In this document: piece after piece, positions 28,680 to 44,778 of the stretch
Layout: the number at the start of each line of letters is the position of its first letter
Position numbering within the stretch: the first letter of the stretch is position 1
Program-made: the position numbers and the translations under genes
The notes under the pieces: generated by a model
What the model was told of the DNA's origin: nothing
Database searches by the model: none
Seen by the model: only the letters and a program-made list of their open reading frames with translations
From: Candidatus Aminicenantales bacterium
GTDB taxonomy: Bacteria; Acidobacteriota; Aminicenantia; Aminicenantales; UBA4085
Assembly: GCA_049515535.1 (NCBI GenBank)
Contig: JBEKTZ010000013.1
Span: forward strand, 1 to 64,000
Direction: 5' to 3'
DNA: 64,000 bases

Positions 28680-31600
28680 ATGATAAAAAAAATATGGTTT
28701 CCTTCCATCTGGCGAAAGGCGTTTTTTGCGCTTTTACTCTGCTTCGCCGTCTCGCTGCCGCTAACGGCGGCCTTTCTCCGAAATATGCCGGTCAAGGTCG
28801 TCCAGCCTAATGGAGAGCCGCTCAATCTCTTCGCCACCGGCGACGAATTTTACAACTGGCTCCACGACGCCAACGGCTACACGATCATCCAGGACCCCGA
28901 GACGGGCTACTATGTTTATGCTGTTTTAGAGAACGGACGGCTCGCATCATCCGCCTTTCCCCTGAGTTCTCTTTCCGCGGTCAACAACGCAAGCGTCAGT
29001 TATCTGAATATCCCCAAGTATTTGATCCAGCCTTGGGACAAACGAGCAAAACCCCGGGATATCAGGCCCGGCGGCTCGCCGGCCACTCCTGAAAAAATCC
29101 TGCGCGCTCCCAGAACGGGAACTCTGAATAACATCGCCATATTCATCCGGTTCAGCGATGAAAGCGAATTTACGGATCTCCTATCGCTCTACGGCGACAT
29201 GTTCAACAACAGCGCGCCGGGCGCGAACTCGATGCTCAACTATTACCGGGAAGTCTCCTACAATCAATTAACGATTGCGACCTCCTTTTATCCGAACGCC
29301 GCGACGACGGTCGTTTCCTATCAGGATTCCCGTCCGCGGAGCTATTACCAGCCCTATAATGCCACGACCAACCCCAATGGATATACCTCATCCAATATGA
29401 CGGATAGAGAGCACACGCTTTTGAAAGACGCGGTCGATGCCGTCGGCTCGCAGATTCCAGCTGGGCTGAACATCGACGGCGACGGCGACGGCAATGTGGA
29501 CAACGTCTGTTTCATTGTCTACGGGAGCTCGGGGGGCTGGGCGGAATTGCTCTGGCCGCACCAGTGGTCTCTCTACACCAAGACGGCCTATATCAACGGC
29601 AAACGCGTCTGGACATACAATTTTCAACTGCAGACGTTTTTAACGGCCAGCGGCGTCGGCGTCTTATGCCACGAGATGTTCCACAGCTTAGGGGCTCCGG
29701 ACCTTTACCATTATAACTACGATGGCCTTACTCCCGTGTCCTCCTGGGATATCATGGAGGATGATCAAAATCCGCCTCAGCATATGGGCGCATACATGAA
29801 GTTCAAATACGGACAATGGATCGCCTCGATTCCTCAAATCACCCTGGCGGGGAATTACTCGCTGACCGATCTGATCTCGGCCGCCAACAACTGTTATAAA
29901 ATCGCTTCTCCGAACTCGACGACGGAATACTTTGTCGTCGAACATAGGTATAAGCGGGGAACGTTTGAAAATTCGTTGCCCGGGTCCGGCCTTCTGATTT
30001 ACCGGATCAATCCGGCGGTTATGGGAAATGCCAACGGCCCGCCCGATGAGGTCTATGTCTATCGGCCCGACGGAACCCAGACCGTGAACGGCTCTCCCTG
30101 GCTGGCCAATTTCGGCTCGCATGTCGGCCGGACAGCCATCAATGACGCGACCAACCCGTCGAGCTTTTTAACTGCCGGCGACCCGGGGGGCTTGAACATT
30201 TCGAACATCGGCTCGCCAAGCGGCGCTCCGGAAATATCTGATATAGTCTATGCCCCTTCCTCGATATCTTTTTATGTATCGCTGACTCCAGTTATTACAG
30301 TTCCGACGGTAACGACAACGGCTGTCACAAACATATTAGCGACGAGTGCGGAGAGCGGGGGCAATGTCACGTCGAGCGGAGGGCCGGCGGTGACGGCGCG
30401 GGGCGTCTGCTGGAGCACGGCGCTGAACCCCACGACGGCCGATGCCAAGACGGTGGACGGCTTGGGGACGGGGTCCTATACGAGCGCCATCACGGGCTTA
30501 AGCCCGAGCACCACGTATCAGGTCCGCGCCTACGCCACGAATTCGGCGGGCACGGCCTACGGTAGTAACTTGAGTTTCACAACTCCTTCCATTATTTTGC
30601 TTCCGACGGTCAGCACGATGGCCGTCACGAACATATCGGGGAGTTTTGCGCAGAGCGGAGGCACGGTAGCCTCGGAAGGGGGGACGCCGGTGACGGCACG
30701 GGGCGTCTGCTGGAGAACGGTGCTAAACCCCACGACGGCCGATTCCAAGACAGTGGACGGCTTGGGGATGGGGTCCTATACGAGCGCCATCGCGGGCTTA
30801 AGCATGAGCACCACGTATCACGTCCGCGCCTACGCCACGAATTCGGCGGGCACGGCCTATGGCAACGACCTGAGCTTCATAACCGCATCGTCTTCTTCCA
30901 TACTTTTTAACGAGAATTTTTTGGGCGCAACGATTCCTGCCGGGTGGAACCAACAGAACATAGGCACTGGAATAACGAATAGATGGTCTATTTCGTTGAC
31001 AAGCCTTGCGGGCGGCTCTCCTAATGAGATGAGATGCGATTGGCAGAGTGTGAATCCGGGCACGTCACGGTTGGTGACGCCGCCCTTGAATACGACAGGC
31101 TATGCGGTTCTCTATTTGAGCTTCAAACATTTTTTGGATTCCTATGATACGGGAGGTCTGGTGTTAAAAGTACAAACCAGTCCTGACGGGACGACCTGGA
31201 CCGATGAATCGTGGTCTGTGCTGACATCGACTGCCAATATAGGGCCTAAGACAGAGTCCGCGGTGCTCACGCACAATTTGAATAGTTCGGCAACTTATGT
31301 GGCCTTTGTTATCACGGGCGACTTGTATAATTTCGATGCCTGGTATATCGATGATGTTTCCATCGCTATACAAAATACGTTCAATTCGGCGGGGAGCTGG
31401 ACCGGCGCGGGAAACGGGGCCGACGGCTGGCATTTGGGAGATTTCAACGGCGACGGACGGACGGACATCTTCCGCTATCGTCCCGGGGTATCCGGAGCCG
31501 AAGTCTTTCTCTCAAACGGGAGCTCATTCGTCGATGCGGGGAGTTGGACCGGCGCGGGAAACGGGGCCGACGGCTGGCATTTGGGAGATTTCAACGGCGA

Positions 31601-32552
31601 CGGACGGACGGACATCTTCCGCTATCGTCCCGGGGTATCCGGAGCCGAGGTCTTTTTGTCGGACGGAACGGAATTTGTCGAAGCCGGGAGCTGGACCGGG
31701 GCGGGCTGCGGCTCGGACGGCTGGTATGTGGGCGATTTCAACGGCGACGGGCGGTCCGATATCATGCGCTATAATCCCGGCGTATCCGGAGCCGAAGTCT
31801 TTCTCTCGAACGGGAGCTCATTCGTCGATGCGGGGAGTTGGACCGGCGCGGGAAACGGGGCCGACGGCTGGCATTTGGGAGATTTCAACGGCGACGGACG
31901 GACGGACATCTTCCGCTATCGCCCCGGGGTATCCGGAGCCGAGGTCTTTTTGTCGGACGGAACGAAATTTGTCGAAGCCGGGAGCTGGACCGGGGCGGGC
32001 TGCGGCTCAGACGGCTGGTATGTGGGCGATTTCAATGGTGACGGAAAAGACGATATTATGAGATATACCCCCGGTGTGGGGTCAGAGGTCTTTCTCTCGG
32101 ACGGGACGAAATTTGTCGAAGCCGGGAGCTGGACCGGGGCGGGGAACGGGACCGATGGCTGGTATGTCGGGGATTTTAACGGAGACGGGAAGGACGATAT
32201 TTTTCGCTATCTCCCCGGAGTCTCCGGGGCGGATGTCTTTCTTTCGAACTCTGCCGCTGTCGGCACTCCTCTCTCTGTTCTGGCCCTCAGTCTATCGGCG
32301 CTCGATGAGGAGATGATCTCAGAAAAAAATGTCCGGAGAGAAATGACTTATCAGGAAGAAGAAGTTTTTCTAAACTCTTTTCTCATGAGGCAGCTCCGGG
32401 GTGAAGAGGTCTCGATCTTTGAGGTCAAAAAAGCCTATGAAGATACGTTGGGGAGGAATGTCCGAAAAGCAGTCATCCATCAATTGCTCTTCAGGCATGG
32501 CTTTTGGAAACTCTTTGAGCGAGTCATCATATTGAACGAAGTAATAAAATAA
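28680..32552 (+). CDS. P1: secreted M6-family (immune inhibitor A-like) metalloprotease + 2 FN3-like domains + jelly-roll domain + 6 FG-GAP repeats + winged-helix-like tail
   Basis: Signal peptide, QPNG...GDEFYNW prodomain, LWPHQW, HEMFHSLGAPDLY zinc motif, WDIM, EYFVVE, VRAYATN x2, GDFNGDG x6. Confidence 0.88.
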   Translation: MIKKIWFPSIWRKAFFALLLCFAVSLPLTAAFLRNMPVKVVQPNGEPLNLFATGDEFYNWLHDANGYTIIQDPETGYYVYAVLENGRLASSAFPLSSLSAVNNASVSYLNIPKYLIQPWDKRAKPRDIRPGGSPATPEKILRAPRTGTLNNIAIFIRFSDESEFTDLLSLYGDMFNNSAPGANSMLNYYREVSYNQLTIATSFYPNAATTVVSYQDSRPRSYYQPYNATTNPNGYTSSNMTDREHTLLKDAVDAVGSQIPAGLNIDGDGDGNVDNVCFIVYGSSGGWAELLWPHQWSLYTKTAYINGKRVWTYNFQLQTFLTASGVGVLCHEMFHSLGAPDLYHYNYDGLTPVSSWDIMEDDQNPPQHMGAYMKFKYGQWIASIPQITLAGNYSLTDLISAANNCYKIASPNSTTEYFVVEHRYKRGTFENSLPGSGLLIYRINPAVMGNANGPPDEVYVYRPDGTQTVNGSPWLANFGSHVGRTAINDATNPSSFLTAGDPGGLNISNIGSPSGAPEISDIVYAPSSISFYVSLTPVITVPTVTTTAVTNILATSAESGGNVTSSGGPAVTARGVCWSTALNPTTADAKTVDGLGTGSYTSAITGLSPSTTYQVRAYATNSAGTAYGSNLSFTTPSIILLPTVSTMAVTNISGSFAQSGGTVASEGGTPVTARGVCWRTVLNPTTADSKTVDGLGMGSYTSAIAGLSMSTTYHVRAYATNSAGTAYGNDLSFITASSSSILFNENFLGATIPAGWNQQNIGTGITNRWSISLTSLAGGSPNEMRCDWQSVNPGTSRLVTPPLNTTGYAVLYLSFKHFLDSYDTGGLVLKVQTSPDGTTWTDESWSVLTSTANIGPKTESAVLTHNLNSSATYVAFVITGDLYNFDAWYIDDVSIAIQNTFNSAGSWTGAGNGADGWHLGDFNGDGRTDIFRYRPGVSGAEVFLSNGSSFVDAGSWTGAGNGADGWHLGDFNGDGRTDIFRYRPGVSGAEVFLSDGTEFVEAGSWTGAGCGSDGWYVGDFNGDGRSDIMRYNPGVSGAEVFLSNGSSFVDAGSWTGAGNGADGWHLGDFNGDGRTDIFRYRPGVSGAEVFLSDGTKFVEAGSWTGAGCGSDGWYVGDFNGDGKDDIMRYTPGVGSEVFLSDGTKFVEAGSWTGAGNGTDGWYVGDFNGDGKDDIFRYLPGVSGADVFLSNSAAVGTPLSVLALSLSALDEEMISEKNVRREMTYQEEEVFLNSFLMRQLRGEEVSIFEVKKAYEDTLGRNVRKAVIHQLLFRHGFWKLFERVIILNEVIK
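30301..30885 (+). repeat. Tandem FN3-like module (300-bp period); third copy at ~40385-40680 (minus)
   Basis: PTV.T.AVTNI...VTARGVCW...VRAYATNSAGTAYG twice, with high nucleotide identity. Confidence 0.85.
31380..32243 (+). repeat. Six FG-GAP/VCBS repeats (144-147 bp)
   Basis: GSWTGAG.G.DGW..GDFNGDG..DI.RY.PG...EVFLS units, near-identical at DNA level. Confidence 0.95.
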
Positions 32553-32703
32553 GCCAAGGGCGGCACAACTCATATTTCGTCAGTTCTGTCTCCAGAGAAG
32601 CGTCGGCAAATGTGAAGGGATCTTGAATCCTGCGTGAACCGGCGCTAAGACAAAATTAGTTCATAACCCCCTGAAATTTCCCGATCTGGTCACGGTGGGA
32701 AGT

Positions 32704-33297
32704 TTAAAACAGCACCTTAAAATTCATCCCGATCGAAAAACCGTCGAGATTCGTCACGAGATTATTGGGATTATTGAAGACGTTCGCGTTGTTTGTGTTG
32801 AGAATTCTGTATCCGAGATCGATATCCAGTTTGGAATGGAAAAGCTTATCTCGGCTCTCAATAGTCGTGATTGTGGCCAAGAAGCCGGCCATGAGACTGC
32901 TGTCCTCGATTCCGTTCGAATAGCTGGCGTTGCCGATATCGATCCCGATATGAAGGAAATTCGAGATCCTCCGCATGATCCTGATTCCCGTGATGTTGCA
33001 GTCGACGTCGACCTCGACCCTGCCCCCTGTCGCCGGCACGCCGCTCCCGTTCATTTTGATCTCTTCCCGTAGGAGTGAGATGTCGAAATCCTCGGAGAGT
33101 TTAAATGTCAGAAGAAAAAGATTGCCGTTTCCGGAAAAGCGGCTGTCCATTCCTCTATAGAGGTTAAATCCGAATCCGAATCCGAATCTTTTTGTCTCCT
33201 GCGCTGAATCCTGGGCGGATGCCGTCAGAGTGCCGAGGAGCATAAAGATGAGCAGTAGGCTCGAAACGCCGATGACTCGAAAAGCTCGTTTCTTCAT
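32704..33297 (-). CDS. Small outer-membrane beta-barrel protein
   Basis: Signal peptide ending ASA, alternating amphipathic strands (FGFGFGFNLY, IDLGYR), terminal strand MNFKVLF with C-terminal Phe. Confidence 0.75.
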   Translation of the reverse strand: MKKRAFRVIGVSSLLLIFMLLGTLTASAQDSAQETKRFGFGFGFNLYRGMDSRFSGNGNLFLLTFKLSEDFDISLLREEIKMNGSGVPATGGRVEVDVDCNITGIRIMRRISNFLHIGIDIGNASYSNGIEDSSLMAGFLATITTIESRDKLFHSKLDIDLGYRILNTNNANVFNNPNNLVTNLDGFSIGMNFKVLF

Positions 33298-33378
33298 AAG
33301 GCTATCCTCTCTTTCACTGACAAGGCCATCTTAAATGAACCATAACTGGTTATAGATAAACTGAAACACGATGAGGTA

Positions 33379-33407
33379 TATTTATATATAAATTGATTTC
33401 TTGTCAA
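33379..33407 (-). promoter_or_regulatory. Sigma70-type promoter for the beta-barrel gene
   Basis: TTGACA followed 15-17 nt later by the AT-rich TATAAATA on the minus strand. Confidence 0.45.
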
Positions 33408-33427
33408 GGATTAATTGAACTGACCTT

Positions 33428-35408
33428 GAATCCTTCACTCCTTCGAGATCAATCGAAAATCATGTTTCTTGAGCCAGCGGAGGAGGACGGCCCGAGTCGG
33501 TTTTTCCCCCGTGGCGTTTTCATAGGCTTGCTTCAAGTCCATCAACGCTACGGGCTCGCCCCTAACGGCTTTCTGCCGGAACGGCTCGAGCCATTTCTCT
33601 TCCATCCTCCAATAGGCCGCATCAAAAAGGATCCCGACACTGGAAGACGCGTTGCTTTGAAATACGTCGAATTCGGAGACCGATCCGGAAACGCTTCCGG
33701 CAAGAAAAACATCCGCTCCGGACACCCCCGGCAGATAGCGGAAAATATCGTCCATCCCGTCTCCGTTGAAATCTCCCACGTACCAGCCGTCAGCGCCGTT
33801 CCCAGCGCCCGTCCAGATCCCGGCTGAGACAAATTGCGTCCCGTCCGAGAGAAAGACCTCTGACCCCACGCCGGGGGTATATCTCATAATGTCGTCTTTT
33901 CCGTCGCCGTTGAAATCGCCCACGTACCAGCCATCCGCGCCGTTCCCGGCGCCCGTCCAGATCCCGGCTGAGACAAATTGCGTCCCGTCCGAGAGAAAGA
34001 CCTCTGACCCCACGCCGGGGGCATATCTCATAATGTCGTCTTTTCCGTCGCCGTTGAAATCGCCCACGTACCAGCCGTCAGCGCCGTTCCCGGCGCCCGT
34101 CCAGATCCCGGCTGAGACAAATTGCGTCCCGTCCGAGAGAAAGACCTCTGACCCCACACCGGGGGTATATCTCATAACGTCGTCCTTCCCATCTCCGTTG
34201 AAGTCGCCGACATACCAGCCGTCTGATCCGTATCCCGCCCCGGTCCAGATCCCAGCTGAGACAAATTGCGTCCCGTCCGAGAGAAAGACCTCTGACCCCA
34301 CGCCGGGGGCATATCTCAATATGTCGTCCTTCCCGTCGCCGTTAAAGTCGCCGACATACCAGCCGTTTGATCCGTATCCCGCCCCGGTCCAGCTGCCGAC
34401 GGAGTTGAACTTCGTCCCATCGGACAGGAACATGTCCGCCCCCGAGACCCCCGGATAATAGCGGAAGATATCCTTTTTCCCATCCCCGTTGAAATCGCCG
34501 ATAAACCAGCCTGCGCCGGCTTTTCCCGCCCCGGTCCAGCTCCCCGAGTAAACGAAGGCCAGCGACGTTTCGCCCTTCCCTTGCAAGTTCAGGTTGTACG
34601 GGTTATTGACCGGGTCATTGTTCAGCAGCGAAATCGACGCCGTCTTCTGCCCCACGGAGGTCGTCTTGAACTCGATGATGAACGTCGTGCTCTGGTTGGG
34701 AGCCACCGGCGACGTCGGAGCTTGGATGACGCTGAACTGGTCCGCGTTGGCTCCGTTGATCACCAGGTTCGTCTGCAGCGTCAGATCGGAAGGCCCCATG
34801 TTGTTGATCGTGAAGACGGCCTGGGAGCCGACATTCACCACCTGCATGCCGTAATTATAGGTCCCGCCCTTGGGGATCGTCGTCCGGCCCTGGACGAGCG
34901 TCATCCTCGGCGCCGTTAGGTTCGTCCCCTGGAAGTCCTGGTTCGGCTCATTCGAGGTAATGTGGGCCAGCTCGCGGACGGCCGGCGTCCAGGAGCCGTA
35001 GCCCGTCTTGCTCGGCGTGATGCTCGTGCTCGAATACGGAGGCATATTATAGGAATAGGTCCCATCCGCCGCCGTGGTCTCCGTATGCCCGTAGAACGAG
35101 AACGTGATCGTCACGCCCCCGACCGGGTTCGTCCCGTCCGTTACCGTGCCCGAGATCCGGTACATTATAGGCGTGCCCTGGAAGTCCTGGTTCGGCTGAT
35201 CGGCCGTGATGTTCGTTATGGTCCGGCTGGCCGGGGTCCACGAGGGATAGGCCGCATGGCTCGGCGTGACCGTCGTCGTCGTCCCCCGGGGAACCGTATA
35301 CGAGTACGTCCCGTTCGCCGCAGTACTCTCCGTGTGGCCGTCGTGCGAGAACGTTACCGTCACATTCTGGACAGGGTTTGGCCCGTCCGTCACCTTCCCC
35401 GAGATCGT
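33428..35408 (-). repeat. ~1.98-kb direct repeat, copy A (3' part of P2)
   Basis: Aligns by eye with 38396-40379 from GAATCCTTCACTCC to GAGATCGT. Confidence 0.93.
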
Positions 35409-37481
35409 TAGCGTATCAGGTGGCAGTGCGAAATCAAGGTAGAAAATCGAGCCGTCAGCTGATGCGCTTGAATAGAGCCTTCTGGTTTCTTGCGCGGCTA
35501 CTGGAAGATAATTTTTCGAAAGAACGCCTTGGCCGAACAAACCAGGTTTTCTTATCGACGGACTCATCGCCCCAGACTCCTGACGGGCAAGACAAAGGCT
35601 CCAGATTCGCGATGCCACCAGATTGTTGTTTATGGATGTCCAGCTTGCCCCTCCGTTTTCGCTCTTGAATACCCCCCCCTGATCCGTTCCAACATAGAGC
35701 GTCGCCGGACTATCCTGATCGATGATAAAAGATGAATTCGGCGTGCCTGAAATGCCATTATTTATTTGCCCCCAATTGTCGCCGCTGTTTGTGCTCTTAT
35801 AGATTCCATTATTCATAGTGACGGCATAAACAATCGAAGGAGTCAGCGGGGCGATGGCCACGGCGCGAATATTTTGCTGCACGAGTCCTGTTTGGATCCA
35901 GGTCGCTCCGCCGTCAGGGCTCTTAAAAACTCCGTACAATGTCGTATGATTCATACTATTTGCGCCGATGTATAGGGTCGTCGATGTTTGAGGATCGATG
36001 GCGATAGCGGCAATCCGATAAATCAGGTTGCCTTTGATATCCGTCCAGTTGTTGCCGCCGTTTATGCTCTTATATATCGACAGGCTGGAGCCCGCATAGA
36101 CAGTGGACGGGTTTTGTGGATCAACCACAACCACCCAGGTGTCATCCTTTCCTCGAGGCAAGCCAGTGTTAATCGCCGTCCAGCTTGCCCCACCGTTCAC
36201 GGTTCGATAAACTCCGCCCTTTGATATAGGGCCCTGGTCATAAATTTTAGCCTGTGTCCCGGCATAGACGATGGATGTATTCTGGGGATTGATGGCCAGG
36301 CTGTTGATCATGAAACTCGTCTCGGGAATTCCGTTATTGTATTTTTCCCACGAAGCTCCCGCGTCCAAGCTTTTATAAATTCCGGCACCGAGAGTCCCGG
36401 CATAAATCGTCGATTCGGCATGGGGATCGATCGCCAGTTTATAGACCGGCGTTGCCCTCATGTTTGTGTTTGAAACTTGCCAGGAATTACCGCTGTCCAC
36501 CGATTTATACACTCCCATGTATTGGGCGCCGATATAGAGATTCAAAGAAGAAATCGGGTCCAGAGCAAGAGATAATACCGAGGGCGGCTGGCCGGTACCC
36601 AAGGGATCCGTCCAGGTTTCCCCGCCATCCGCGCTCTTGACGAGCCGTCCATAAGAAGCATAAATCGTGCCCGGGCTATTCGGATCCAGCCAGACCCGGC
36701 CTAAAATGAGTCCAAAACTTTTGATCGATGCGAAATGGGCTCCGCCATCTATGCTCTTCCATAAATCTCCATTATAGCCGCCGGCATAAATGATGAGGGA
36801 ATTATGGAGATCTATAGCGACGGCTTCCCAGTGGGGGATAAAGTCTACCGGCGGGCTTCCCGCGAGGCCTGTGGGATTCCAAGATACGCCGCCGTCCGTG
36901 CTCTTAAACAATCCCAGATCATTTTCCTCAAGATAGACAACGGAAGAATTGTTTGGATCGACGACAAAAAAACCGGGGCTAGCAAATCCATCAGCGATTT
37001 CCGTCCAGGTCGCTCCGCCGTCCGAGCTTTTCATTGCAGCAGTATATGACGATAAGACAACGTACAGATTATCGGGCGTTTGGGGATCGATCGCCATGCT
37101 GTAAACAGGATCGCTGAGTCCGGTTAAAGTCCATGTTGAGCCGCTGTCGGTTGTTTTGTAAACACCGGCGTTGGCCGACAGCCCTGACCAAACGTAGAGA
37201 GTGGAAGGCATTTTGGGATTTATGACGATTCCGTCAAAGGACAAGTAAGGAAAACCCTCGTTAATCGTATTCCAAGTTGCAGCACCATTTGTGCTCTTAT
37301 AGACTCCGCCTGTTTTCGTGGCGGCATAGAGGATTAAAGGATTGCCCGGATCGATCACTAATCCTGACATCGAAGCCCCTTCCGGTCCGCAAGGCGTCCA
37401 GACATTCGTCTGGCTAAGAGCGCAGAGCGATGAAACGAAAAAGACAGCCAGAAAGAAAATAATTTTAGATTTGTTCAGCAT
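33435..37481 (-). CDS. P2: secreted BNR/VPS10-like beta-propeller + 2 carboxypeptidase-regulatory-like Ig domains + choice-of-anchor-D/ASH-like Ig + 6 FG-GAP + winged-helix-like tail
   Basis: Start MLNKSK (RBS AGAGGGAAG), signal peptide, many 'IDP.....Y....G.YKS.DGG.TW' Asp-box repeats, GDFNGDG x6. Confidence 0.88.
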   Translation of the reverse strand: MLNKSKIIFFLAVFFVSSLCALSQTNVWTPCGPEGASMSGLVIDPGNPLILYAATKTGGVYKSTNGAATWNTINEGFPYLSFDGIVINPKMPSTLYVWSGLSANAGVYKTTDSGSTWTLTGLSDPVYSMAIDPQTPDNLYVVLSSYTAAMKSSDGGATWTEIADGFASPGFFVVDPNNSSVVYLEENDLGLFKSTDGGVSWNPTGLAGSPPVDFIPHWEAVAIDLHNSLIIYAGGYNGDLWKSIDGGAHFASIKSFGLILGRVWLDPNSPGTIYASYGRLVKSADGGETWTDPLGTGQPPSVLSLALDPISSLNLYIGAQYMGVYKSVDSGNSWQVSNTNMRATPVYKLAIDPHAESTIYAGTLGAGIYKSLDAGASWEKYNNGIPETSFMINSLAINPQNTSIVYAGTQAKIYDQGPISKGGVYRTVNGGASWTAINTGLPRGKDDTWVVVVDPQNPSTVYAGSSLSIYKSINGGNNWTDIKGNLIYRIAAIAIDPQTSTTLYIGANSMNHTTLYGVFKSPDGGATWIQTGLVQQNIRAVAIAPLTPSIVYAVTMNNGIYKSTNSGDNWGQINNGISGTPNSSFIIDQDSPATLYVGTDQGGVFKSENGGASWTSINNNLVASRIWSLCLARQESGAMSPSIRKPGLFGQGVLSKNYLPVAAQETRRLYSSASADGSIFYLDFALPPDTLTISGKVTDGPNPVQNVTVTFSHDGHTESTAANGTYSYTVPRGTTTTVTPSHAAYPSWTPASRTITNITADQPNQDFQGTPIMYRISGTVTDGTNPVGGVTITFSFYGHTETTAADGTYSYNMPPYSSTSITPSKTGYGSWTPAVRELAHITSNEPNQDFQGTNLTAPRMTLVQGRTTIPKGGTYNYGMQVVNVGSQAVFTINNMGPSDLTLQTNLVINGANADQFSVIQAPTSPVAPNQSTTFIIEFKTTSVGQKTASISLLNNDPVNNPYNLNLQGKGETSLAFVYSGSWTGAGKAGAGWFIGDFNGDGKKDIFRYYPGVSGADMFLSDGTKFNSVGSWTGAGYGSNGWYVGDFNGDGKDDILRYAPGVGSEVFLSDGTQFVSAGIWTGAGYGSDGWYVGDFNGDGKDDVMRYTPGVGSEVFLSDGTQFVSAGIWTGAGNGADGWYVGDFNGDGKDDIMRYAPGVGSEVFLSDGTQFVSAGIWTGAGNGADGWYVGDFNGDGKDDIMRYTPGVGSEVFLSDGTQFVSAGIWTGAGNGADGWYVGDFNGDGMDDIFRYLPGVSGADVFLAGSVSGSVSEFDVFQSNASSSVGILFDAAYWRMEEKWLEPFRQKAVRGEPVALMDLKQAYENATGEKPTRAVLLRWLKKHDFRLISKE

Positions 37482-37642
37482 TGTCTTCCCTCTATAATAA
37501 GAACATAATTGCCAGTAACACTGCATTTAGAACACGGCGGAAAGCGTTCCCCTTTCACAAAAGTAATTTCATTTCCACATCTAGTGCATTGGTAAATTCC
37601 AGATTCAGGAACGATGTTGCCGGCTGAATATGACTTGGCCAA
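37475..37642 (-). CDS. Small zinc-ribbon protein (YjzC/DUF1451-like)
   Basis: YSAGNIVPESGIYQCTRCG...FPPCSKC with two CxxC. Probable TTG start after AAAGGGAGG. Stop overlaps the P2 start by 7 nt. Confidence 0.65.
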   Translation of the reverse strand: MAKSYSAGNIVPESGIYQCTRCGNEITFVKGERFPPCSKCSVTGNYVLIIEGRQC

Positions 37643-37676
37643 CCTCCCTTTAATTGATCCATTATCTTGGAGTGGA

Positions 37677-37705
37677 AATCTGACGCCAAATATATATCTT
37701 GTCAA
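37677..37705 (-). promoter_or_regulatory. Possible sigma70 promoter for Zn-ribbon/P2
   Basis: TTGACA-17 nt-CAGATT on the minus strand. Confidence 0.4.
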
Positions 37706-38151
37706 GAAAGGCGTTAGATCTCCCAATCGTTTCATATCTATTCCCCAATCGATTTGAATCGAATCTTAATCGAACTTATTTGACTAAATTATCACGCCGA
37801 TGAAGCAAGAATGTCAAATGTTTTGCTTGAGCCGCGTTTGACCCTTGTAGGAATACTTCAAGAATATATGAACACTTCTGTTTTATTCTTAAGCAAAATT
37901 CAATTTACGATTTGATTTAATGAATTATATTTCATCTTTACAGCAAAGAGTCTCTAAGATTTTCTCAGATCAGACAATATCAACAAATCTCAGTAACACA
38001 AATCGATTCTCATACGATTTTTTCATTTTTAACCCCCCGATTGCCAACTGAGACTATAGTGATCCTTCAATGACAGACTACTCCCCGTGTGCCAACGGTG
38101 TGCCAAAATGTGACTAAAAGCGCTGAAATTATGGTATCGGGATTGAAACGC

Positions 38152-38197
38152 AAAAAACAGTCAATGACCCCGCGGCTTGCCGCGGGGTCATTGACTG
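38152..38197 (-). terminator. Perfect palindrome / intrinsic terminator downstream of P3
   Basis: 19-bp perfect arms CAGTCAATGACCCCGCGGC-TT-GCCGCGGGGTCATTGACTG, followed by T6 on the minus strand. Confidence 0.8.
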
Positions 38198-38230
38198 ACC
38201 TCCCCCCACATTTCCTCTACCACCGGTGAA

Positions 38231-38298
38231 GTCAAGGGACGAGCCTTCGCGGCGAAAGCGGACCCCCGGGCAAAGCCCGGGGCCCCGGCCGCCGTGAA
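38231..38298 (-). repeat. 68-bp intergenic hairpin element, copy 2 (inverted)
   Basis: Reverse complement matches copy 1 at 63/68 and ends in the same TTGAC. Confidence 0.9.
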
Positions 38299-38395
38299 AG
38301 TTCGAGGCGATGAGCCGGGATTCGGGGAGACAAAACGCCTCCCCTGAAACCGGCATTATACAAAATGCTTCGACTCGGGGAAGTCCCTTCTCATG

Positions 38396-40379
38396 GAATC
38401 CTTCACTCCTTCGAGATCAATTGAAAATCATGTTTCTTGAGCCAACGGAGGAAGACGGCCCGAGTCGGTTTTTCCCCCGTGGCGTTTTCATAGGCTTGCT
38501 TCAAATCCATCAACGAGACGAGCTCGCCCCTAGCGGCTTTCTGCCGGAACGGCTCCAGCCATTTCTCTTCCATCCAATAGGCCGCATCAAGAAGGATCCC
38601 GACACTGGAAGACACATTCCTTTGAAAAGCGTCGAATTCGGAGACCGGTCCGGAAACGCTTCCGGCAAGAAAAACATCCGCCCCGGAGACACCCGGCAGA
38701 TAGCGGAAAATATCGTCATTCCCGTCTCCGTTGAAATCCCCGACATACCAGCCGTCAGCCCCGTTCCCGGCGCCCGTCCAGATCCCGGCTGAGACAAATT
38801 GCATCCCGTCCGAGAGAAAGACCTCTGACCCCACGCCGGGGGTGTATCTCATAATGTCGTCCTTCCCGTCGCCGTTGAAATCGCCCACGTACCAGCCGTC
38901 TGTCCCGTTCGTCTCCAGCGTCCAGATCCCGGCTGAGACAAATTGCATCCCGTCCGAGAGAAAGACCTCTGACCCCACGCCGGGGACATACCGGAAAATA
39001 TCGCATTTTCCGTCGCCGTTGAAGTCGCCGACATACCAGCCGTCTGATCCGTTCCCGGCGCCCGTCCAGCTGCCGACCGAGACGAACTGCGTCCCATCGG
39101 ACAGGAACATGTCCGCCCCCGAGATCCCCGGGAGATAGCGGAAGATGTCGTCCTTCCCGTCGCCGTTGAAGTCGCCGACATACCACCCGTCTGATCCGTA
39201 TCCCGCTCCGGTCCAGCTGCCGACGGAGTTGAACTGCGTCCCGTCGGACAGGAACATGTCCGCCCCCGAGATCCCCGGGAGATAGCGGAAGATATCGGCT
39301 TTCCCGTCGCCGTTGAAGTCGCCGACATACCAGCCGTTTGATCCGTATCCCGCCCCGGTCCAGGTGCCGACGGAGTTGAACTTCGTCCCGTCGGACAGGA
39401 ACATGTCCGCCCCCGAGACCCCAGGATAATAGCGGAAGATATCCTTTTTCCCGTCCCCGTTGAAATCGCCGATAAACCAGCCGGCGCCGGCTTTTCCCGC
39501 CCCGGTCCAGCTCCCCGAGTAAACGAAGGCCAGCGATGTTTCGCCCTTCCCTTGCAAGTTCAGGTCGTACGGGTTATTGGCCGGGTCATTGTTCAGCAGC
39601 GAAATCGACGCCGTCTTTTGCCCCACGGAGGTCGCCTTGAACTCGATGATGAACGTCGTGCTCTGGTTGGGCGCCACCGGCGATGTCGGCGCCTGGATGA
39701 CGCTGAACTGGTCCGCGTTGGCTCCGTTGATCACCAGGTTCGTCTGAAGCGTCAGATCGGAATGCCCCGTGTTGTTGATCGTGAAGACGGCCTGGGAGCC
39801 TAGATTCACCATCTGCGTGCCGTAATCATAGGTCCCGCCCTTGGGGATCGTCGTCTGGCCCTGGACGAGCGTCATCCTCGGCGCCGTCAGGTTCGTCCCC
39901 TGGAAGTCCTGGTTCGGCTCATCCGAGGTAATGTGGGCCAGCTCGCGGACGGCCGGGATCCAGGAGCCGTAGCCCGTCTTGCTCGGCGTAATGATCGTGC
40001 TCGAATACGGAGGGACATTATAGGAATAGGTCCCATCCGCCGCCGTGGTCTCCGTATGCCCGTAGAACGAGAACGTGATCGTTACGCCCCCGACCGGGTT
40101 TGTCCCGTCCGTCACCGTGCCCGAGATCCGGTACATTATGGGCGTGCCCTGGAAGTCCTGGTTCGGCTGATCGGCCGTGATGTTCGTTATGGTCCGGCTG
40201 GCCGGGGTCCACGAGGGATAGGCCGCATGAGACGGCGTCACCGTCGTCGTCGTCCCCCGGGGAACCGTATACGAGTACGTCCCGTTCGCCGCAGTACTCT
40301 CCGTGTGGCCGTCATGCGAGAACGTTACCGTCACATTCTGGACAGGGTTTGGCCCGTCCGTCATCTTCCCCGAGATCGT
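38396..40379 (-). repeat. ~1.98-kb direct repeat, copy B (3' part of P3)
   Basis: See copy A. Confidence 0.93.
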
Positions 40380-42356
40380 AAAGGTGCTCGCGCTTGTGCC
40401 GAAGGTCAAATCATCGCCGTAAGAAGTTCCCGCCGCGTTGGTGGCATAAGCTCTCACATGATAAGTCGTGCTCGACGTCAATCCGGTTATCGAACTCGTA
40501 AACCCTCCCGAGCCTGAGCCGTCTGTCGTTTTGCTATCCGCGGTCGTGGGGTTTGCCGAGGTGCTCCAGCACACACCCCTGGCCGTCACCGCCGCTCCGC
40601 CTTCCGCGGTCACGTTCCCTCCGCTAGTGGCGGTGGAGAAGGCTATGTCAGAAACGGCTGTCGTCGTCACCGTCGGGATATCAGCGGAGATCTTGGCTAT
40701 GAAAACGTCCCACCCCGTCTGATCTGTCTGGTACTGGTTCAGGGTCGGAAAATTCGTGCTTTGCGTCCATCCGGTCACATAAGCATTGCCGCTGCCGTCC
40801 ACCGCTATTCCTTCGCCATAGTCGGTGCCACTCCCACCCAGGTAGGTGGAGTAAACCAGGCTGTCATTGCCGCTCTTCGTCGTGTCGATCTTTGTCACGA
40901 AGGCATCAGTGCTCGCCTGATCTGTCTGGTACTGGTTCAGGGTCGGAAAATTCGTGCTTTGCGTCCATCCGGTCACATAAGCATTGCCGCTGCCGTCCAC
41001 CGCTATTCCATAGCCATAATCGGTGCCACTCCCTCCCAGGTAGGTGGAGTAGACCAGGCTGTCATTGCCGCTCTTCGTCGTGTCGATCTTTGTCACGAAG
41101 ACATCGTAGTTTCCATCTCCTGGATCTGTCTGGTACTGGTTCAGGGTCGGAAAATCCGTGCTAGACGTGTATCCGGTCACATAGGCATTACCGCTGCCGT
41201 CCACCGCTATTCCATAGCCATAATCCTGGCTACTCCCGCCCAGATAGGTGGAGTAAACCAGGCTGTCATTGCCGCTCTTCGTCGTGTCGATCTTTGTCAC
41301 GAAGACATCCGTATTCGCCTTATCTGTCTGGTACTGGTTCAGGGTGGGAAAATTCGTGCTTAACGTGTATCCGGTCACATAGGCATTGCCGCTGCCGTCC
41401 ACCGCTATTCCTTGGCCATAATCGTCGCTATTCCCACCCAGGTAAGTGGAGTAGGCCAGGACCACGGGATCGATGACCAGCTCCAGGCCCGCATCGTAGG
41501 CCCCGACTTCGAACCCGTAGGCGTTCTCGCCGATCATCTTGAAGGCCGACTCGACAGCTACCCGTGTCCCGTTCCCCGATCGGCCTTCCACTGACAGCTT
41601 TGCCCCGGCCTCCTGATAGGCCGCCGGCTTCTTGTGCACGAGCTCCCCGAACCCCGTCTCGACGAGCAGGTTACCCGCCTCATCCACCCGCGTCCCTTTC
41701 ATATTCCTGTATTCGAACCGGATGTCCCGGGGATTCCCCCCGGGACGGACGATCCAGTCATACTCGATCCGGCTTTCGATCCCGTAAACCTTCAGATCGA
41801 TCCGATCATAGATATTCCTGTAGAGAACGGCCCCTGACGTGGGCACGGCCGTGTGCCATTTCGCCGGATCGTTGCCGATGAAATAATTGACCTTGAGGGC
41901 GGTCTCATCCACGGGGACAATCTCCGGATGTTTGGCGGCATTTAGAAAGACGAGCCTGGAGACATCCCGCTCGTATCGGCGATCCTCACGCTTTTCCGGC
42001 CGGAGAGAGGGCTCTTTTCCGGCGGCCGGAGCCTCCGCGCGCTCGGACTTGAAACTGTCGAAGACAAGCCCTTTCTCGGTCAGCCAGAGCGTATAGCGGG
42101 CCGCTTTGGCATAAAAGAGCGCCCGGCCGTCGACCTGACCCCGGTTAGCCGTGAAATAAAGGGGAAGGCTCCCGAAATCGAGGTGAAGACCGGAGGGATT
42201 CCCGGTCGGCTGAGGCTTGAGGTCGGGGACTTGGGCTGGCCGCCCCGGGGGGAAAGTCCGCGGGCTAGATGACCCTGGATGGGGCGCGACGGGGCTCACG
42301 GTCATGCCTGCACAGAGCAGAATGCCAATGAAGAGGACAAAAAGCGTCTTTCTCAT
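38403..42356 (-). CDS. P3: secreted SBBP beta-propeller-repeat protein + FN3-like + same C-terminal half as P2
   Basis: GGAGGGGGAG RBS, signal peptide, LPLYFTANRGQ...VNYFIGNDP...LVIDPVVLAYSTYLGG, four YSTYLGG...IAVDGSGNAYVTG repeats, GDFNGDG x6. Confidence 0.9.
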   Translation of the reverse strand: MRKTLFVLFIGILLCAGMTVSPVAPHPGSSSPRTFPPGRPAQVPDLKPQPTGNPSGLHLDFGSLPLYFTANRGQVDGRALFYAKAARYTLWLTEKGLVFDSFKSERAEAPAAGKEPSLRPEKREDRRYERDVSRLVFLNAAKHPEIVPVDETALKVNYFIGNDPAKWHTAVPTSGAVLYRNIYDRIDLKVYGIESRIEYDWIVRPGGNPRDIRFEYRNMKGTRVDEAGNLLVETGFGELVHKKPAAYQEAGAKLSVEGRSGNGTRVAVESAFKMIGENAYGFEVGAYDAGLELVIDPVVLAYSTYLGGNSDDYGQGIAVDGSGNAYVTGYTLSTNFPTLNQYQTDKANTDVFVTKIDTTKSGNDSLVYSTYLGGSSQDYGYGIAVDGSGNAYVTGYTSSTDFPTLNQYQTDPGDGNYDVFVTKIDTTKSGNDSLVYSTYLGGSGTDYGYGIAVDGSGNAYVTGWTQSTNFPTLNQYQTDQASTDAFVTKIDTTKSGNDSLVYSTYLGGSGTDYGEGIAVDGSGNAYVTGWTQSTNFPTLNQYQTDQTGWDVFIAKISADIPTVTTTAVSDIAFSTATSGGNVTAEGGAAVTARGVCWSTSANPTTADSKTTDGSGSGGFTSSITGLTSSTTYHVRAYATNAAGTSYGDDLTFGTSASTFTISGKMTDGPNPVQNVTVTFSHDGHTESTAANGTYSYTVPRGTTTTVTPSHAAYPSWTPASRTITNITADQPNQDFQGTPIMYRISGTVTDGTNPVGGVTITFSFYGHTETTAADGTYSYNVPPYSSTIITPSKTGYGSWIPAVRELAHITSDEPNQDFQGTNLTAPRMTLVQGQTTIPKGGTYDYGTQMVNLGSQAVFTINNTGHSDLTLQTNLVINGANADQFSVIQAPTSPVAPNQSTTFIIEFKATSVGQKTASISLLNNDPANNPYDLNLQGKGETSLAFVYSGSWTGAGKAGAGWFIGDFNGDGKKDIFRYYPGVSGADMFLSDGTKFNSVGTWTGAGYGSNGWYVGDFNGDGKADIFRYLPGISGADMFLSDGTQFNSVGSWTGAGYGSDGWYVGDFNGDGKDDIFRYLPGISGADMFLSDGTQFVSVGSWTGAGNGSDGWYVGDFNGDGKCDIFRYVPGVGSEVFLSDGMQFVSAGIWTLETNGTDGWYVGDFNGDGKDDIMRYTPGVGSEVFLSDGMQFVSAGIWTGAGNGADGWYVGDFNGDGNDDIFRYLPGVSGADVFLAGSVSGPVSEFDAFQRNVSSSVGILLDAAYWMEEKWLEPFRQKAARGELVSLMDLKQAYENATGEKPTRAVFLRWLKKHDFQLISKE
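40700..41456 (-). repeat. Four SBBP repeats (180-186 bp)
   Basis: Near-identical YSTYLGG..DYG.GIAVDGSGNAYVTG.T.STNFPTLNQYQTD units. Confidence 0.92.
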
Positions 42357-42705: not shown

Positions 42706-44778
42706 TCAGCGGTCTTGGTAGGTGATATTTCCGACGGCGACGCCCAAATCGCGTGGGTCTGGAACGCCCGCCGTTTTCAGGGGATTCCAAGTCCGGTCGA
42801 TCTTGATGAGCAGGATGACATCCTGGCCGACCTCTTCGGGGACGGCCAGGACAACGTCTTGCCATTCGTTCCGGGCAAGAGTGATTTCTTTGACGAGCCT
42901 TTTCTGCCGGAAAAGATCTTTCACGAAATAAAGCCGAATCGTGATGGGTTTTTTCTGGATGTCCGGATGGGACGCATGGAGAGGAAGGACGAGAATCGGC
43001 TTTTCGATCTTGAGGGTCAAACCTCCATAGTTTCGCGTCCAGCGGAATTCCCGCCCCTCATTGTCCTTTTCGGCGGGATAAAGACCGAAATCTTGTTTCA
43101 AATGAAACCTTTCGGTTCGGCTTTGCAAGGACAAAGAATGGGCTGAATTCCAGAGGTGGATACCCGCCAGGAGCACGACGAGAACAACCGTCCAGGCCCG
43201 GACTCGTTTGGAAAGCCCAGCCTTCCGCGGGGGCTCTGCGGGCGCCGGAGTGTCATCCGGCCCGGGCTGGACGAACATGCTTATGGCTAAGAGCCAGAAC
43301 ATATATTTCACTTCGTAGCTTCCGATATACGTGTGAAATTGGATGTTCACGAAATAGGAGATGAGGCCGGCGATCGCTGCAAGCTGCACGAATCTCCATC
43401 GGCCCGACCAAGGATTGGAACGATACGCCCGCCTCATTTGGCGGATGAGTTCCCAGAAAATCCAGAGGACGAGAATGACACCGGGCAAGCCAAGCTCCGA
43501 ACCGGTCTGGAGAAGGTAGTTCTCGGCGGATTCCCCGATCGGCCAGCTTTTTTTGAGGGTTTCGGCGTAATTCGAGATTTCAACGGTGTAGGCTCCGATG
43601 CCGACGCCGGTCAAGGGATAGTCTTTCATCATGACGACGGCGCTTTCCCAGTTGTCCGCCCAGCGCTTGTGAATGAGATTATCTAAAGAGCTTTTCTTCT
43701 GGAGGTCGCTGACCTTGAGCCTGAGCTTGTAGAAGAGCTTCGAGTCTTTTGAGATCATGAGGCTCGCCGTGAGGAGGAGAACGCAGCCGAGGACGACGGC
43801 GGCCAGTCGAATGAGCTTTCGCCGGTGCGCCGGATCGGCCGTTCGGTTTTTCCTGATTTGTTCGAGATACATCAGGAAAAAGGCCAGAAGAGCCACGAGG
43901 ATTCCCAGGAAGCCGCTGCCCGATCCCGTAAAAGGAAGAAGGAACAGACTGGCGACGAGGATCGTACCCGAAAAGATTTTCGCCGCCGGCTTGCGGAGAA
44001 AAAGAATCCCGAGCATCAGGGGAAGCATCATCCCGAGAAAAGCGCCGAAGGAGTTGGGGTCTTTGAATGTCGCGTTGAGCGTCCCCATGCTCACCCGGAG
44101 CGGCGTGTTGCCGAAATCGATATGGCCGAGACGTTGATAAAGCCCGACGCCAATGGCCGCGGCCGTGCCCGAGAACAGCGCGGCCCAGAGGAGACGGAGA
44201 TTTTTAAAAGAGGACGTCAAATGGAGAAGGATGAACAGAAACGCCATTGCGCTTAAATAATTCAGGGCGTAGAAGACGCTGCTCATGACCGCTCCGCCGG
44301 CCGTTACGTGGACGACGTTCGTGACAAGCTCATAGAAGGCGTCCGATAGAAAGGGAGGGAAATTCGCGAAGCGAAGGATCGTGATGACGGCTGACACGCT
44401 CACGAGCAGGGCGAAGAGGGCCATGGGCTTCAGAATGCCGGGACGGTCGGGGAGTTCGGTTCGGTCAAAACAGCGGTGGATGAGCCAGCCCAGGAAAAAA
44501 AATAGGAACAGAACGAGCGCCGTGGGAGCGTGGGGAGTTGACTCGAAAATCTTGAAAAAATACGGAAGACTGTTGATGAGGGGAAAGAGAAAGCAGAAAA
44601 CGGCCGTTCCCCAGAGCGGCGCGGCCGCGGTGAGGACGGCCGTCAGCGCCAACAGCGGAGCGAGGACGGCTTGGAACGGCCCGGCGAGCGGCACATAGAT
44701 GAAGTAAAATTTGGCCAGGGCAAGAGTGTAAACCGCCGTGAGGACGATCGTCGGCCAGGACGCTTTTTTAGAAGCCAT
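42706..44778 (-). CDS. O-antigen ligase / O-oligosaccharyltransferase family (Wzy_C) protein with C-terminal soluble domain
   Basis: ATFKDPNSFG, YPLTGVGIGAY, AENYLLQTGSELGLPG, many TMs. Confidence 0.82.
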   Translation of the reverse strand: MASKKASWPTIVLTAVYTLALAKFYFIYVPLAGPFQAVLAPLLALTAVLTAAAPLWGTAVFCFLFPLINSLPYFFKIFESTPHAPTALVLFLFFFLGWLIHRCFDRTELPDRPGILKPMALFALLVSVSAVITILRFANFPPFLSDAFYELVTNVVHVTAGGAVMSSVFYALNYLSAMAFLFILLHLTSSFKNLRLLWAALFSGTAAAIGVGLYQRLGHIDFGNTPLRVSMGTLNATFKDPNSFGAFLGMMLPLMLGILFLRKPAAKIFSGTILVASLFLLPFTGSGSGFLGILVALLAFFLMYLEQIRKNRTADPAHRRKLIRLAAVVLGCVLLLTASLMISKDSKLFYKLRLKVSDLQKKSSLDNLIHKRWADNWESAVVMMKDYPLTGVGIGAYTVEISNYAETLKKSWPIGESAENYLLQTGSELGLPGVILVLWIFWELIRQMRRAYRSNPWSGRWRFVQLAAIAGLISYFVNIQFHTYIGSYEVKYMFWLLAISMFVQPGPDDTPAPAEPPRKAGLSKRVRAWTVVLVVLLAGIHLWNSAHSLSLQSRTERFHLKQDFGLYPAEKDNEGREFRWTRNYGGLTLKIEKPILVLPLHASHPDIQKKPITIRLYFVKDLFRQKRLVKEITLARNEWQDVVLAVPEEVGQDVILLIKIDRTWNPLKTAGVPDPRDLGVAVGNITYQDR

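Follow-up and report, generated by a model that had tools for sequence, protein, structure and literature searches.

Three long open reading frames, P1, P2 and P3, in a 64,000-nucleotide stretch of DNA from a Candidatus Aminicenantales bacterium (GenBank assembly GCA_049515535.1, contig JBEKTZ010000013.1, positions 1 to 64,000; the whole stretch is called the window below, and its contig C13) encode large, apparently exported proteins that end in the same kind of small domain, hereafter the tail. We propose that the tail is a conserved three-helix domain of ~60-65 amino acids (aa) that would have come from the second helix-turn-helix (HTH2, the HTH_33 region) of OrfA in one subgroup of IS630 transposases, and that would have been exapted as the last module of a cassette consisting of FG-GAP calcium-loop repeats, a Ser/Thr/Ala-rich linker and the tail itself. 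The N-terminal domains to which this cassette is joined differ widely and include peptidases (M6 and C1), lectin-like domains, and propeller-type domains with BNR/sortilin-like, SBBP or RCC1-like repeats. The tail would bind or dock outside the cytoplasm and so help to keep its carriers, hydrolases as well as adhesin-like proteins, on the cell surface or within the polysaccharide matrix; its candidate ligands are a protein receptor, an acidic polysaccharide and nucleic acid. We put the probability of this reading, taken as a whole, at roughly 60%: comparison of sequences establishes the homology, the architecture, the conservation across lineages and the loss of transposase parts, whereas export and docking are the parts that we infer.

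The tail-carrying genes of the window and their parts are the following.

28680..32552, forward strand: P1, 1290 aa, with a signal-peptide-like N-terminus, an M6 metalloprotease domain, a choice-of-anchor J domain, six FG-GAP repeats, the linker and the tail.
31371..32249, forward strand: FG-GAP cassette of P1, six repeats of ~49 aa with DxNGDG calcium-loop motifs (motif positions 920-1164).
32250..32330, forward strand: linker of P1 from the last blade to the tail; the predicted local distance difference test score (pLDDT) is below 50 at residues 1-18 of the tail model.
32331..32540, forward strand: tail core of P1, an IS630-OrfA HTH2-like three-helix domain with a P1-specific fourth helix.
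33435..37526, reverse strand: P2, 1363 aa, with a BNR/sortilin-like propeller, CarboxypepD_reg, a choice-of-anchor D domain, six FG-GAP repeats and the tail.
33438..33611, reverse strand: tail core of P2, a P2-type HTH2-like domain, by alignment.
38403..42356, reverse strand: P3, 1317 aa, with a signal-peptide-like N-terminus, DUF7948, SBBP propeller repeats, a choice-of-anchor D domain, six FG-GAP repeats and the tail.
38406..38579, reverse strand: tail core of P3, P2-type, by alignment.

By Pfam and NCBIfam, the N-terminal parts of the three proteins are mutually unrelated. P1 matches TIGR03296 (E = 1e-42), NF038128 (E = 1.5e-8) and FG-GAP_3 (E = 8e-26), and the BNR/sortilin-like repeats of P2 match NF045728 (E = 1e-54); the true start of P2 is probably the Met at 37481, and its signal-peptide-like N-terminus is counted from there. 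All three proteins then follow one plan, six FG-GAP repeats of ~49 aa leading through a short Ser/Thr/Ala-rich linker into the tail, with a stop codon directly after each tail. An earlier reading of the window (the original prediction) had recognized in these tails an IS630-transposase DNA-binding region, co-opted as a sorting signal, a folding cap or a tether to extracellular DNA. The frames that it described and the tail peptides that it quoted are all present, and its coordinates hold to within ~4 nucleotides (nt), 'RREMTYQ' beginning at 32334 and not at 32330, and the Met of 'MEEKW' in P3 lying at 38573-38571 and not at 38575.

The association of tail and repeats is strict. In the genome, two or more FG-GAP calcium motifs are found in four open frames, each of which has a tail at its end, and FG-GAP repeats precede the tail in every tail-bearing protein seen elsewhere, their number varying from 2 (in P0165) to 6. 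P0165 itself (776 aa, on an ENA contig of 180 kb) has only two FG-GAP repeats visible between its N-terminal region and the tail, and no Pfam domain on record. The fourth frame of the genome was found with a tail profile, which over the 3.45-Mb genome gave exactly one further strong copy, at C5:233479-233718 and of P2 type; it ends P4, an open frame of 1032 aa on contig C5 that encodes a papain-like C1 peptidase and includes a lectin-like domain. The tails of P2 and P3 are recent, nearly identical copies, which differ over 80 codons by 9 nonsynonymous and 6 synonymous changes, so that the tails of the window amount to two independent types, P1-type and P2-type, and not to three; P2, P3 and P4 have their tail in common through recent duplication of the whole cassette. 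Between the two types, BLASTP aligns the P1 and P2 tails with 18/52 identities, 33/52 positives and 0 gaps (E = 1e-11, for a single comparison), which agrees with the gapless alignment and the 18/50 identities originally claimed, and 21 columns are invariant in a MAFFT alignment of the P1, P2 and P3 tails.

The two parts of the cassette seem to have had different histories. Over 199 nt the last blades of P1 (32045-32243) and P2 (33702-33900) have 87% DNA identity, and the adjoining tails have only 35% protein identity, a pattern that suggests gene conversion among the repeats, ending at the tail boundary. As read from these sequences, the FG-GAP repeats are homogenised between paralogues and two anciently diverged tail types are kept apart.

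The origin of the tail in an IS630 OrfA is indicated by profile comparisons. When a profile of the four tails (A2) was searched against 1.84 billion representative proteins, 181 matches were obtained at E <= 1e-3, and the best 150 of them were classified. Among these 150, 17 are FG-GAP proteins or fragments of them, in which the match ends 0-21 aa from the C-terminus, one is a Sel1 protein that we regard as spurious, and 132 are small proteins without FG-GAP motif, most commonly of 160-180 aa and with the match often at about residues 85-145. Pfam HTH_33 is found in 111 of these 132 small proteins and NCBIfam transpos_IS630 in 117. The consensus of the small-protein matches, GGRxxxxMTxEEExxFLxxFxxxAxxGExxxxxEIKxAYExxxGxxVxxSTIYRLLxRHGWRKxxPRxxHPK, closely resembles the IS630 motif that the original prediction had given. 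When an alignment of 17 tails (A4) was compared with an alignment of 29 OrfA-like proteins (A5), hhalign returned a probability of 99.6% and an E-value of 1.3e-23 (optimistic, since the A5 rows had been chosen by their similarity to the tail) over 72 columns with 35% identity, pairing tail residues 18-87 with OrfA columns 80-151 of 175. In the opposite direction, the A5 profile run over the genome finds the four tails only, that of P1 at E = 4.1e-15 (32325-32513) and the other three at 7e-10 to 6e-9 (P2, 33444-33605, 5.5e-9; P3, 38415-38570, 4.1e-9). That the reference set comes from real two-frame IS630 elements follows from locus L008, where an A5-type OrfA (1267-1773) has an overlapping frame downstream with DDE_3 (E = 5.7e-25). 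A protein-language-model search with residues 1215-1290 of P1 likewise ranked HTH_33 clusters first (score 0.94, 168-172 shared features); a homologous-protein search with the P1 tail region returned P1's own cluster only. Further relatives came from an A4-based search for longer proteins (at least six proteins) and from searches for related loci, in which A7 on metagenome contigs gave two loci and P0028 on genome contigs gave one relevant metagenome-assembled genome (MAG). Taken together, these comparisons make it very probable that the tail is homologous to the HTH2 of IS630 OrfA.

The comparison also indicates what has been kept and what has been lost. The tail consensus (msyQEEeefL.PF.eRv..GEevsIyEIKkAYE..vG..VR.v.irqLL.RHgyW) and the OrfA consensus (mt.eEE.efL..F.ekA..G.il.v.eik.AYE..vG.kv.kstiYrlL.RHgWRKi.PRp.HPK) have in common the AYE and RH motifs and the apparent hydrophobic-core positions, and the tails differ at the S, T, Y and R positions of the OrfA recognition helix (helix 3). 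The basic arm that follows in OrfA is gone: over the next 20 residues the mean net charge is +0.5 in tails and +5.5 in OrfA. The core has a mean net charge of -1.5 in tails (range -6 to +4) and of -0.6 in OrfA, and helix 3 of the tails still carries R/H residues. There is no first HTH (HTH_23/28/29) before the tail, FG-GAP repeats and linker standing upstream and the hhalign alignment spanning OrfA columns 80-151 only. A scan of the genome with NF033545 found matches on contigs C7, C32, C3 and C1 only, none on C13 and none beside the C5 tail, hence no DDE domain at either place, and, apart from a terminator hairpin, inverted repeats arise around the tails only where the convergent P1 and P2 genes both encode FG-GAP repeats, with no insertion sequence ends. 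Lacking the first HTH, the DDE domain and flanking inverted repeats of the insertion sequence kind, the tail is neither a transposase nor a fresh insertion, as the original prediction had held. In summary, the tail and OrfA of the IS630 transposases (HTH_33 PF13592, NF033545) have a ~65-residue pattern and a three-helix prediction in common, whereas the tail is without the first HTH, DDE_3, the frameshift partner and the basic arm 'WRKi.PRp.HPK...KK', is located at the C-terminus of proteins with signal-peptide-like N-termini, and scores under the Pfam HTH_33 threshold. The HTH_33 assignment of the original prediction is thus sustained through OrfA profiles, but not through the Pfam model itself, and its basic arm or 'wing' is not kept.

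We also would note that one 536-aa protein of another genome of the phylum sample described below (L015, G161:C1, 91-1698, minus strand) reads as a TniQ-like zinc-ribbon protein (CxxC...CxxC) with an IS630-OrfA-like HTH2 at its end, '...SAVYRFLMRHGWKPKPK', so that this HTH module is also found at the C-terminus of another mobile-element protein.

Structure prediction is compatible with this origin. With the 17-tail alignment, AlphaFold2 gave a mean pLDDT of 76.8 (88-92 in the core) and placed helices at 24-39, 46-57 and 63-72, together with the P1-specific helix at 76-89; the prediction has no beta wing. An exhaustive VIA search with both models returned ten top chains at Z 5.0-5.8, a range common for helical models, and the top rows are mainly DNA-binding domains of the HTH or winged-helix kind: the sigma-54 RpoN domain, CENP-B residues 72-131 (Z 5.5, root-mean-square deviation 2.2-2.5 over 53-54 residues), ArgR/AhrC, the OmpR family and MarR-like proteins. 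The A4 profile against PDB sequences gave chance-level matches only (proteasome alpha-4 and L23a, E >= 0.018). The modelled tail fits an HTH fold.

The tail is real and has probably been retained for a long time. Two metagenome runs from different studies, X1 and X2, both labelled as peat metagenomes, contain contigs that each bridge the last blade, the linker, the tail, the stop codon and the downstream gene: record 7 of X1 spans 32114-33400 with 0 differences, and record 15 of X2 spans 32121-33400 with 24 substitutions and no indels. Since these contigs bridge the junction, an assembly chimera can be dismissed, and a diverged strain has preserved the frame; as we read the listed substitutions, the HTH core of the X2 variant has only E28D, V49I and two synonymous changes. 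The runs that contain this stretch of the window are mostly metagenomes of peat, soil and sediment, and those compared with it, X1-X3, are peat runs. Beyond this strain, several metagenome collections contain FG-GAP proteins with the tail, which stands at the C-terminus in other genomes as well, a recurrence that the original prediction had named as a check. Their N-terminal domains include CARDB/TIG/Big_7, Peptidase_C1, Peptidase_M6, DUF7948 with SBBP, Kre9-like, and RCC1 with fn3. Where a source gives these proteins a name, it is, except for the M6 peptidase ones, 'hypothetical protein', perhaps because the Pfam HTH_33 model misses the tails. Among 301 sampled genomes of the window's phylum, nine have a match, and in only two of them, the window's own genome (G000) and G267 of the same class, is it on FG-GAP proteins; of the matches in the other seven, three were read, two of them OrfA-like frames and one the TniQ-like protein, and four are small frames of 95-179 aa.

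Some 20 divergent tails, at 27-57% identity, keep the core pattern, and no stop is found inside the match except for one TAA in G267. This is a stronger argument for selection than the ratio of nonsynonymous to synonymous substitution rates (dN/dS), which for the tails of P2, P3 and P4 ranges from 0.25 to 0.74, below 1 in all three pairs, from very small counts (4-9 synonymous and 9-11 nonsynonymous differences) that alone make weak evidence. The original prediction had argued for selection from the divergent, in-frame retention of all three tails; this holds through the ~20 divergent tails found elsewhere, the three of the window amounting to two types, and the dN/dS check that it proposed came out in the expected direction on those small counts. 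In a subsampled tree of 23 tails and 43 OrfA sequences (every third OrfA row kept, and 16 rows dropped, namely near-duplicate cluster members, one mislabelled fragment, two long-branch OrfA rows, P0001 and L033b), all tails lie on one side of a branch with a Shimodaira-Hasegawa-like approximate likelihood ratio test support of 87, which is not decisive. On these sequences a single capture of the tail from OrfA is favoured, not proven. As a separate observation on the tails of P0006-P0041 (alignments A4 and A7), a single Cys stands 2-3 residues past the last blade ('FL.xC') in four of the four A7 tails and in most P1-type metagenome tails, and is absent from P1-P4.

The tail-bearing proteins are probably exported. 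A hydrophobicity heuristic finds a basic N-region followed by a hydrophobic stretch in 15 of 16 tail proteins, the exception looking 5'-truncated, and finds no transmembrane-like segment in the last 150 aa of the 16 (maximum 19-residue hydropathy, KD19, 1.40). LptD is encoded near P4, so that the cell is diderm, with an outer membrane; given the signal-peptide-like N-termini and the lack of a C-terminal membrane segment, the tail would end up outside the cytoplasm of a diderm. An HTH on apparently Sec-exported diderm proteins is unexpected, because it has no obvious extracytoplasmic substrate except extracellular DNA.

Gene context points in part to polysaccharides. Around P1-P3 the window has a polysaccharide locus (Wzx flippase, Wzy_C, Polysacc_synt_2, DegT aminotransferases, Bac_transf and methyltransferases), which includes the following genes.

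24608..26086, forward strand: Wzx-type flippase (Polysacc_synt), part of the flanking polysaccharide locus.
42706..44778, reverse strand: 690-aa membrane protein of the Wzy_C family (O-antigen ligase/polymerase), directly upstream of P3.

P4 is located among sugar-nucleotide genes on C5, and the P0028-like protein of MAG G301 among genes for glycosyltransferases, a sulfotransferase, a heparinase II/III-like protein, Bac_transf, Wzx and a Wzz-sulfatase, so that, where the flank is 8 kb or longer, three contexts out of four (window, C5 and G301) are polysaccharide or sugar-nucleotide loci. Tail genes stand in tandem in the window and on the metagenome contigs of L033 and L034. A more specific proposal, in which the tail and the calcium-binding FG-GAP repeats would together tether secreted peptidases and propellers to extracellular DNA or to an acidic or sulfated polysaccharide made by the locus, is tentative, and we hold it to be possible rather than probable.

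An alternative function for the tail is that of a new C-terminal export or sorting signal, which would be read by an outer-membrane secretion or anchoring machinery and perhaps be cleaved, like the C-terminal domain (CTD) of the type IX secretion system (T9SS) or PEP-CTERM. One tail is common to several unrelated cargo domains, and it is placed as a signal would be: each of the 17 FG-GAP proteins among the best 150 matches has it 0-21 residues from its end, and it is C-terminal also in P0165 and in the G267 protein. The choice-of-anchor domains, so named by NCBI, occur on proteins with alternative C-terminal anchors, and NCBIfam gives choice-of-anchor J in P1 and choice-of-anchor D in P2 and P3. 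In addition, these large proteins must cross or attach to the outer membrane, though no known signal is present: direct Pfam and NCBIfam searches of the tails gave nothing usable, and neither the tails nor the whole proteins match a named sorting domain. This last result, together with the profile similarity to HTH_33 and the conservation of the tail in other genomes, runs as the original prediction would have it. Like T9SS CTD, PEP-CTERM, LPXTG and GlyGly-CTERM, the tail is a C-terminal module common to unrelated exported proteins, some of them with choice-of-anchor domains; unlike them, it matches no NCBIfam or Pfam sorting model, has no hydrophobic or transmembrane segment and is predicted to be a folded helical domain. 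The sorting signals known to us are beta-sandwich domains or transmembrane-plus-basic tails and not folded helical bundles, and sorting signals usually accept any cargo, whereas the tail is never found without FG-GAP repeats. Moreover, the tail is internal in one protein of G301 (contig C152), no conserved partner gene adjoins it in the four contexts examined, and the combination of FG-GAP repeats and tail is rare in the phylum (2 of the 301 sampled genomes). A sorting function is improbable to our minds.

The link with the repeats speaks for another possibility, namely that the tail serves the FG-GAP repeats within the same molecule, as a cap, plug or oligomerisation element that closes incomplete repeat sets into a propeller. 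The strict coupling described above would be explained, and with 2 to 6 repeats some of the proteins cannot form a closed propeller alone; the tail type is also distinct from the homogenised repeats, as the 87% DNA identity of the P1 and P2 last blades and the 35% protein identity of their tails illustrate. However, a linker of 20-40 residues, of low complexity and low pLDDT, separates the last blade from the tail, and no co-variation of blade and tail is evident, the P2-type tail following nearly identical cassettes and the P1-type quite different ones. We judge an intramolecular role as unlikely as a sorting role. It is highly improbable that an old IS630 insertion into the 3' end of an ancestral cassette left the tail behind as a neutral relic, or that the tail is an artefact of assembly or annotation: its mobile-element origin and the recent whole-cassette duplication behind the P2, P3 and P4 tails would allow it, but the core residues kept in ~20 tails free of frameshifts and stops in those read (the G267 TAA excepted), the dN/dS below 1 in all three pairs, the independent assemblies that bridge the blade-tail junction and the grouping of the tails apart from OrfA, which fits long vertical retention, all go against it.

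Several results weigh against an exapted OrfA HTH2 that docks outside the cytoplasm, in addition to the optimistic hhalign E-value already mentioned. The Pfam HTH_33 model matches none of the three window tails at E <= 10 and only one of the 17 aligned tails, at E = 0.013, below the gathering score of PF13592 (25 bits); a genome-wide PF13592 scan at E <= 1 has no tail among its matches. The resident IS630 elements, with OrfA and DDE in separate frames (G000:C7:108649-109537 and C32:87-982, C32 being, with its 1066 bp, about one element), were considered as the source of the tail and rejected, hhalign giving a probability of 0.2%, which amounts to undetectable similarity. In the full 157-row tree the tails need four label changes, one of them due to the mislabelled fragment. 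As for the fold, the check proposed originally, AlphaFold followed by Foldseek, gave in its first half three predicted helices with a core pLDDT of 88-92; in its second half, Foldseek against PDB gave no match at E <= 0.001 and a best match to calmodulin (E = 0.81) that we treat as noise; the Z scores of the VIA search are those usual for helical models. The missing basic arm and a core that is on average slightly acidic both speak against strong binding of DNA or other polyanions in the manner of OrfA, though helix 3 stays basic. A strictly terminal role is called into question by the FG-GAP protein of G301 in which the tail is internal (L032, 1054-2649, minus strand; ~170 residues follow), a fixed link to polysaccharide loci by the G267 protein, which lies among toxin-antitoxin, PFOR and sigma-54 activator genes, and the case for export comes from a hydrophobicity heuristic only. 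The extra C-terminal part of the L032 protein deserves a separate remark: it has a Thr/Ser/Pro-rich linker, the frame ends in a proline-rich text and may be broken, and the stretch '...YYYYMSDQVNTTRLMTDDTGN' resembles what we take to be the start of an RHS/YD-repeat core.

The remaining features around the tail genes of the window are the following.

32704..33297, reverse strand: 197-aa exported protein without Pfam family, between the convergent P1 and P2 genes.
37475-37735, reverse strand: 86-aa zinc-ribbon protein (DUF1451, E = 3e-7) between P3 and P2, ending a few bases from the likely P2 start.
38158..38197, reverse strand: terminator-like hairpin with 19-bp perfect arms and then a T run, ~205 nt past the P3 stop.

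P2 has its own promoter-like site (11/12 matches, 37817-37788), and an Rfam scan of the window found no family. The 197-aa protein, which ends in ...NFKVLF, looks like a small outer-membrane beta-barrel by its sequence. It was considered as a dedicated partner of the tail and set aside, as no open reading frame of like size and position stands beside the tail genes in L029, L033, L034 and L036, a comparison of size and position made with no search using the 197-aa sequence. Genes of the AbiEii/AbiEi type IV toxin-antitoxin system occur within a few kb of a tail gene in two genomes (L035, 9407-10306, G000:C5; L036, 1413-2897 and 4504-4980, G267:C9), probably by coincidence. Note also that the Wzy_C family includes PglL-type protein O-oligosaccharyltransferases; the Ser/Thr/Ala-rich linkers would be plausible glycosylation sites for the Wzy_C protein encoded upstream of P3, although this is speculation.

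Two known cases are close enough to be instructive. Among eukaryotic nuclear proteins there are well-documented cases of domesticated transposase DNA-binding domains, and the domesticated proteins of IS630-Tc1-mariner/pogo origin are nuclear and still bind DNA. CENP-B (PDB 1HLV), which is derived from such an element, has kept the transposase HTH without transposition, as the tail has; its second HTH (residues 72-131) is among the top fold matches of the tail, at a Z too low for a specific relationship. Differently from CENP-B, the tail consists of one HTH only, carried by bacterial proteins that are apparently exported, and its binding of DNA is putative. Recurrent domestication is described for pogo elements in the accessible part of PMC7386202.

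The other case concerns the FG-GAP repeats. Bap1 and RbmC are secreted FG-GAP beta-propeller adhesins of the biofilm matrix, and we know of no HTH-like tail in either. The resemblance, drawn by description only, lies in secreted FG-GAP-type repeats tied to an exopolysaccharide, three of the four tail contexts being polysaccharide loci; the cassette described here differs in being carried on peptidases and other propellers. Both are named as matrix proteins of Vibrio cholerae in the accessible part of PMC10865864.

In the accessible parts of the literature, neither FG-GAP proteins nor exported proteins are described as carrying an HTH_33- or IS630-like domain, in line with the original prediction, which knew of none. 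The HTH_33 family and the FG-GAP repeats are each known; what appears to be new is their fusion, that is, a transposase-derived HTH on apparently exported bacterial proteins. The cassette is an example of domain shuffling, and as the curated hidden Markov models miss the domain, a dedicated profile such as A4 would annotate this small and scattered family. If the tail were a sorting signal, it would be a new export tag. If it instead binds extracellular DNA, an acidic polysaccharide or a surface receptor, it would be a new retention module for secreted enzymes, and, should the matrix tether prove true, to our knowledge the first transposase-derived HTH to act as an anchor in an extracellular matrix.

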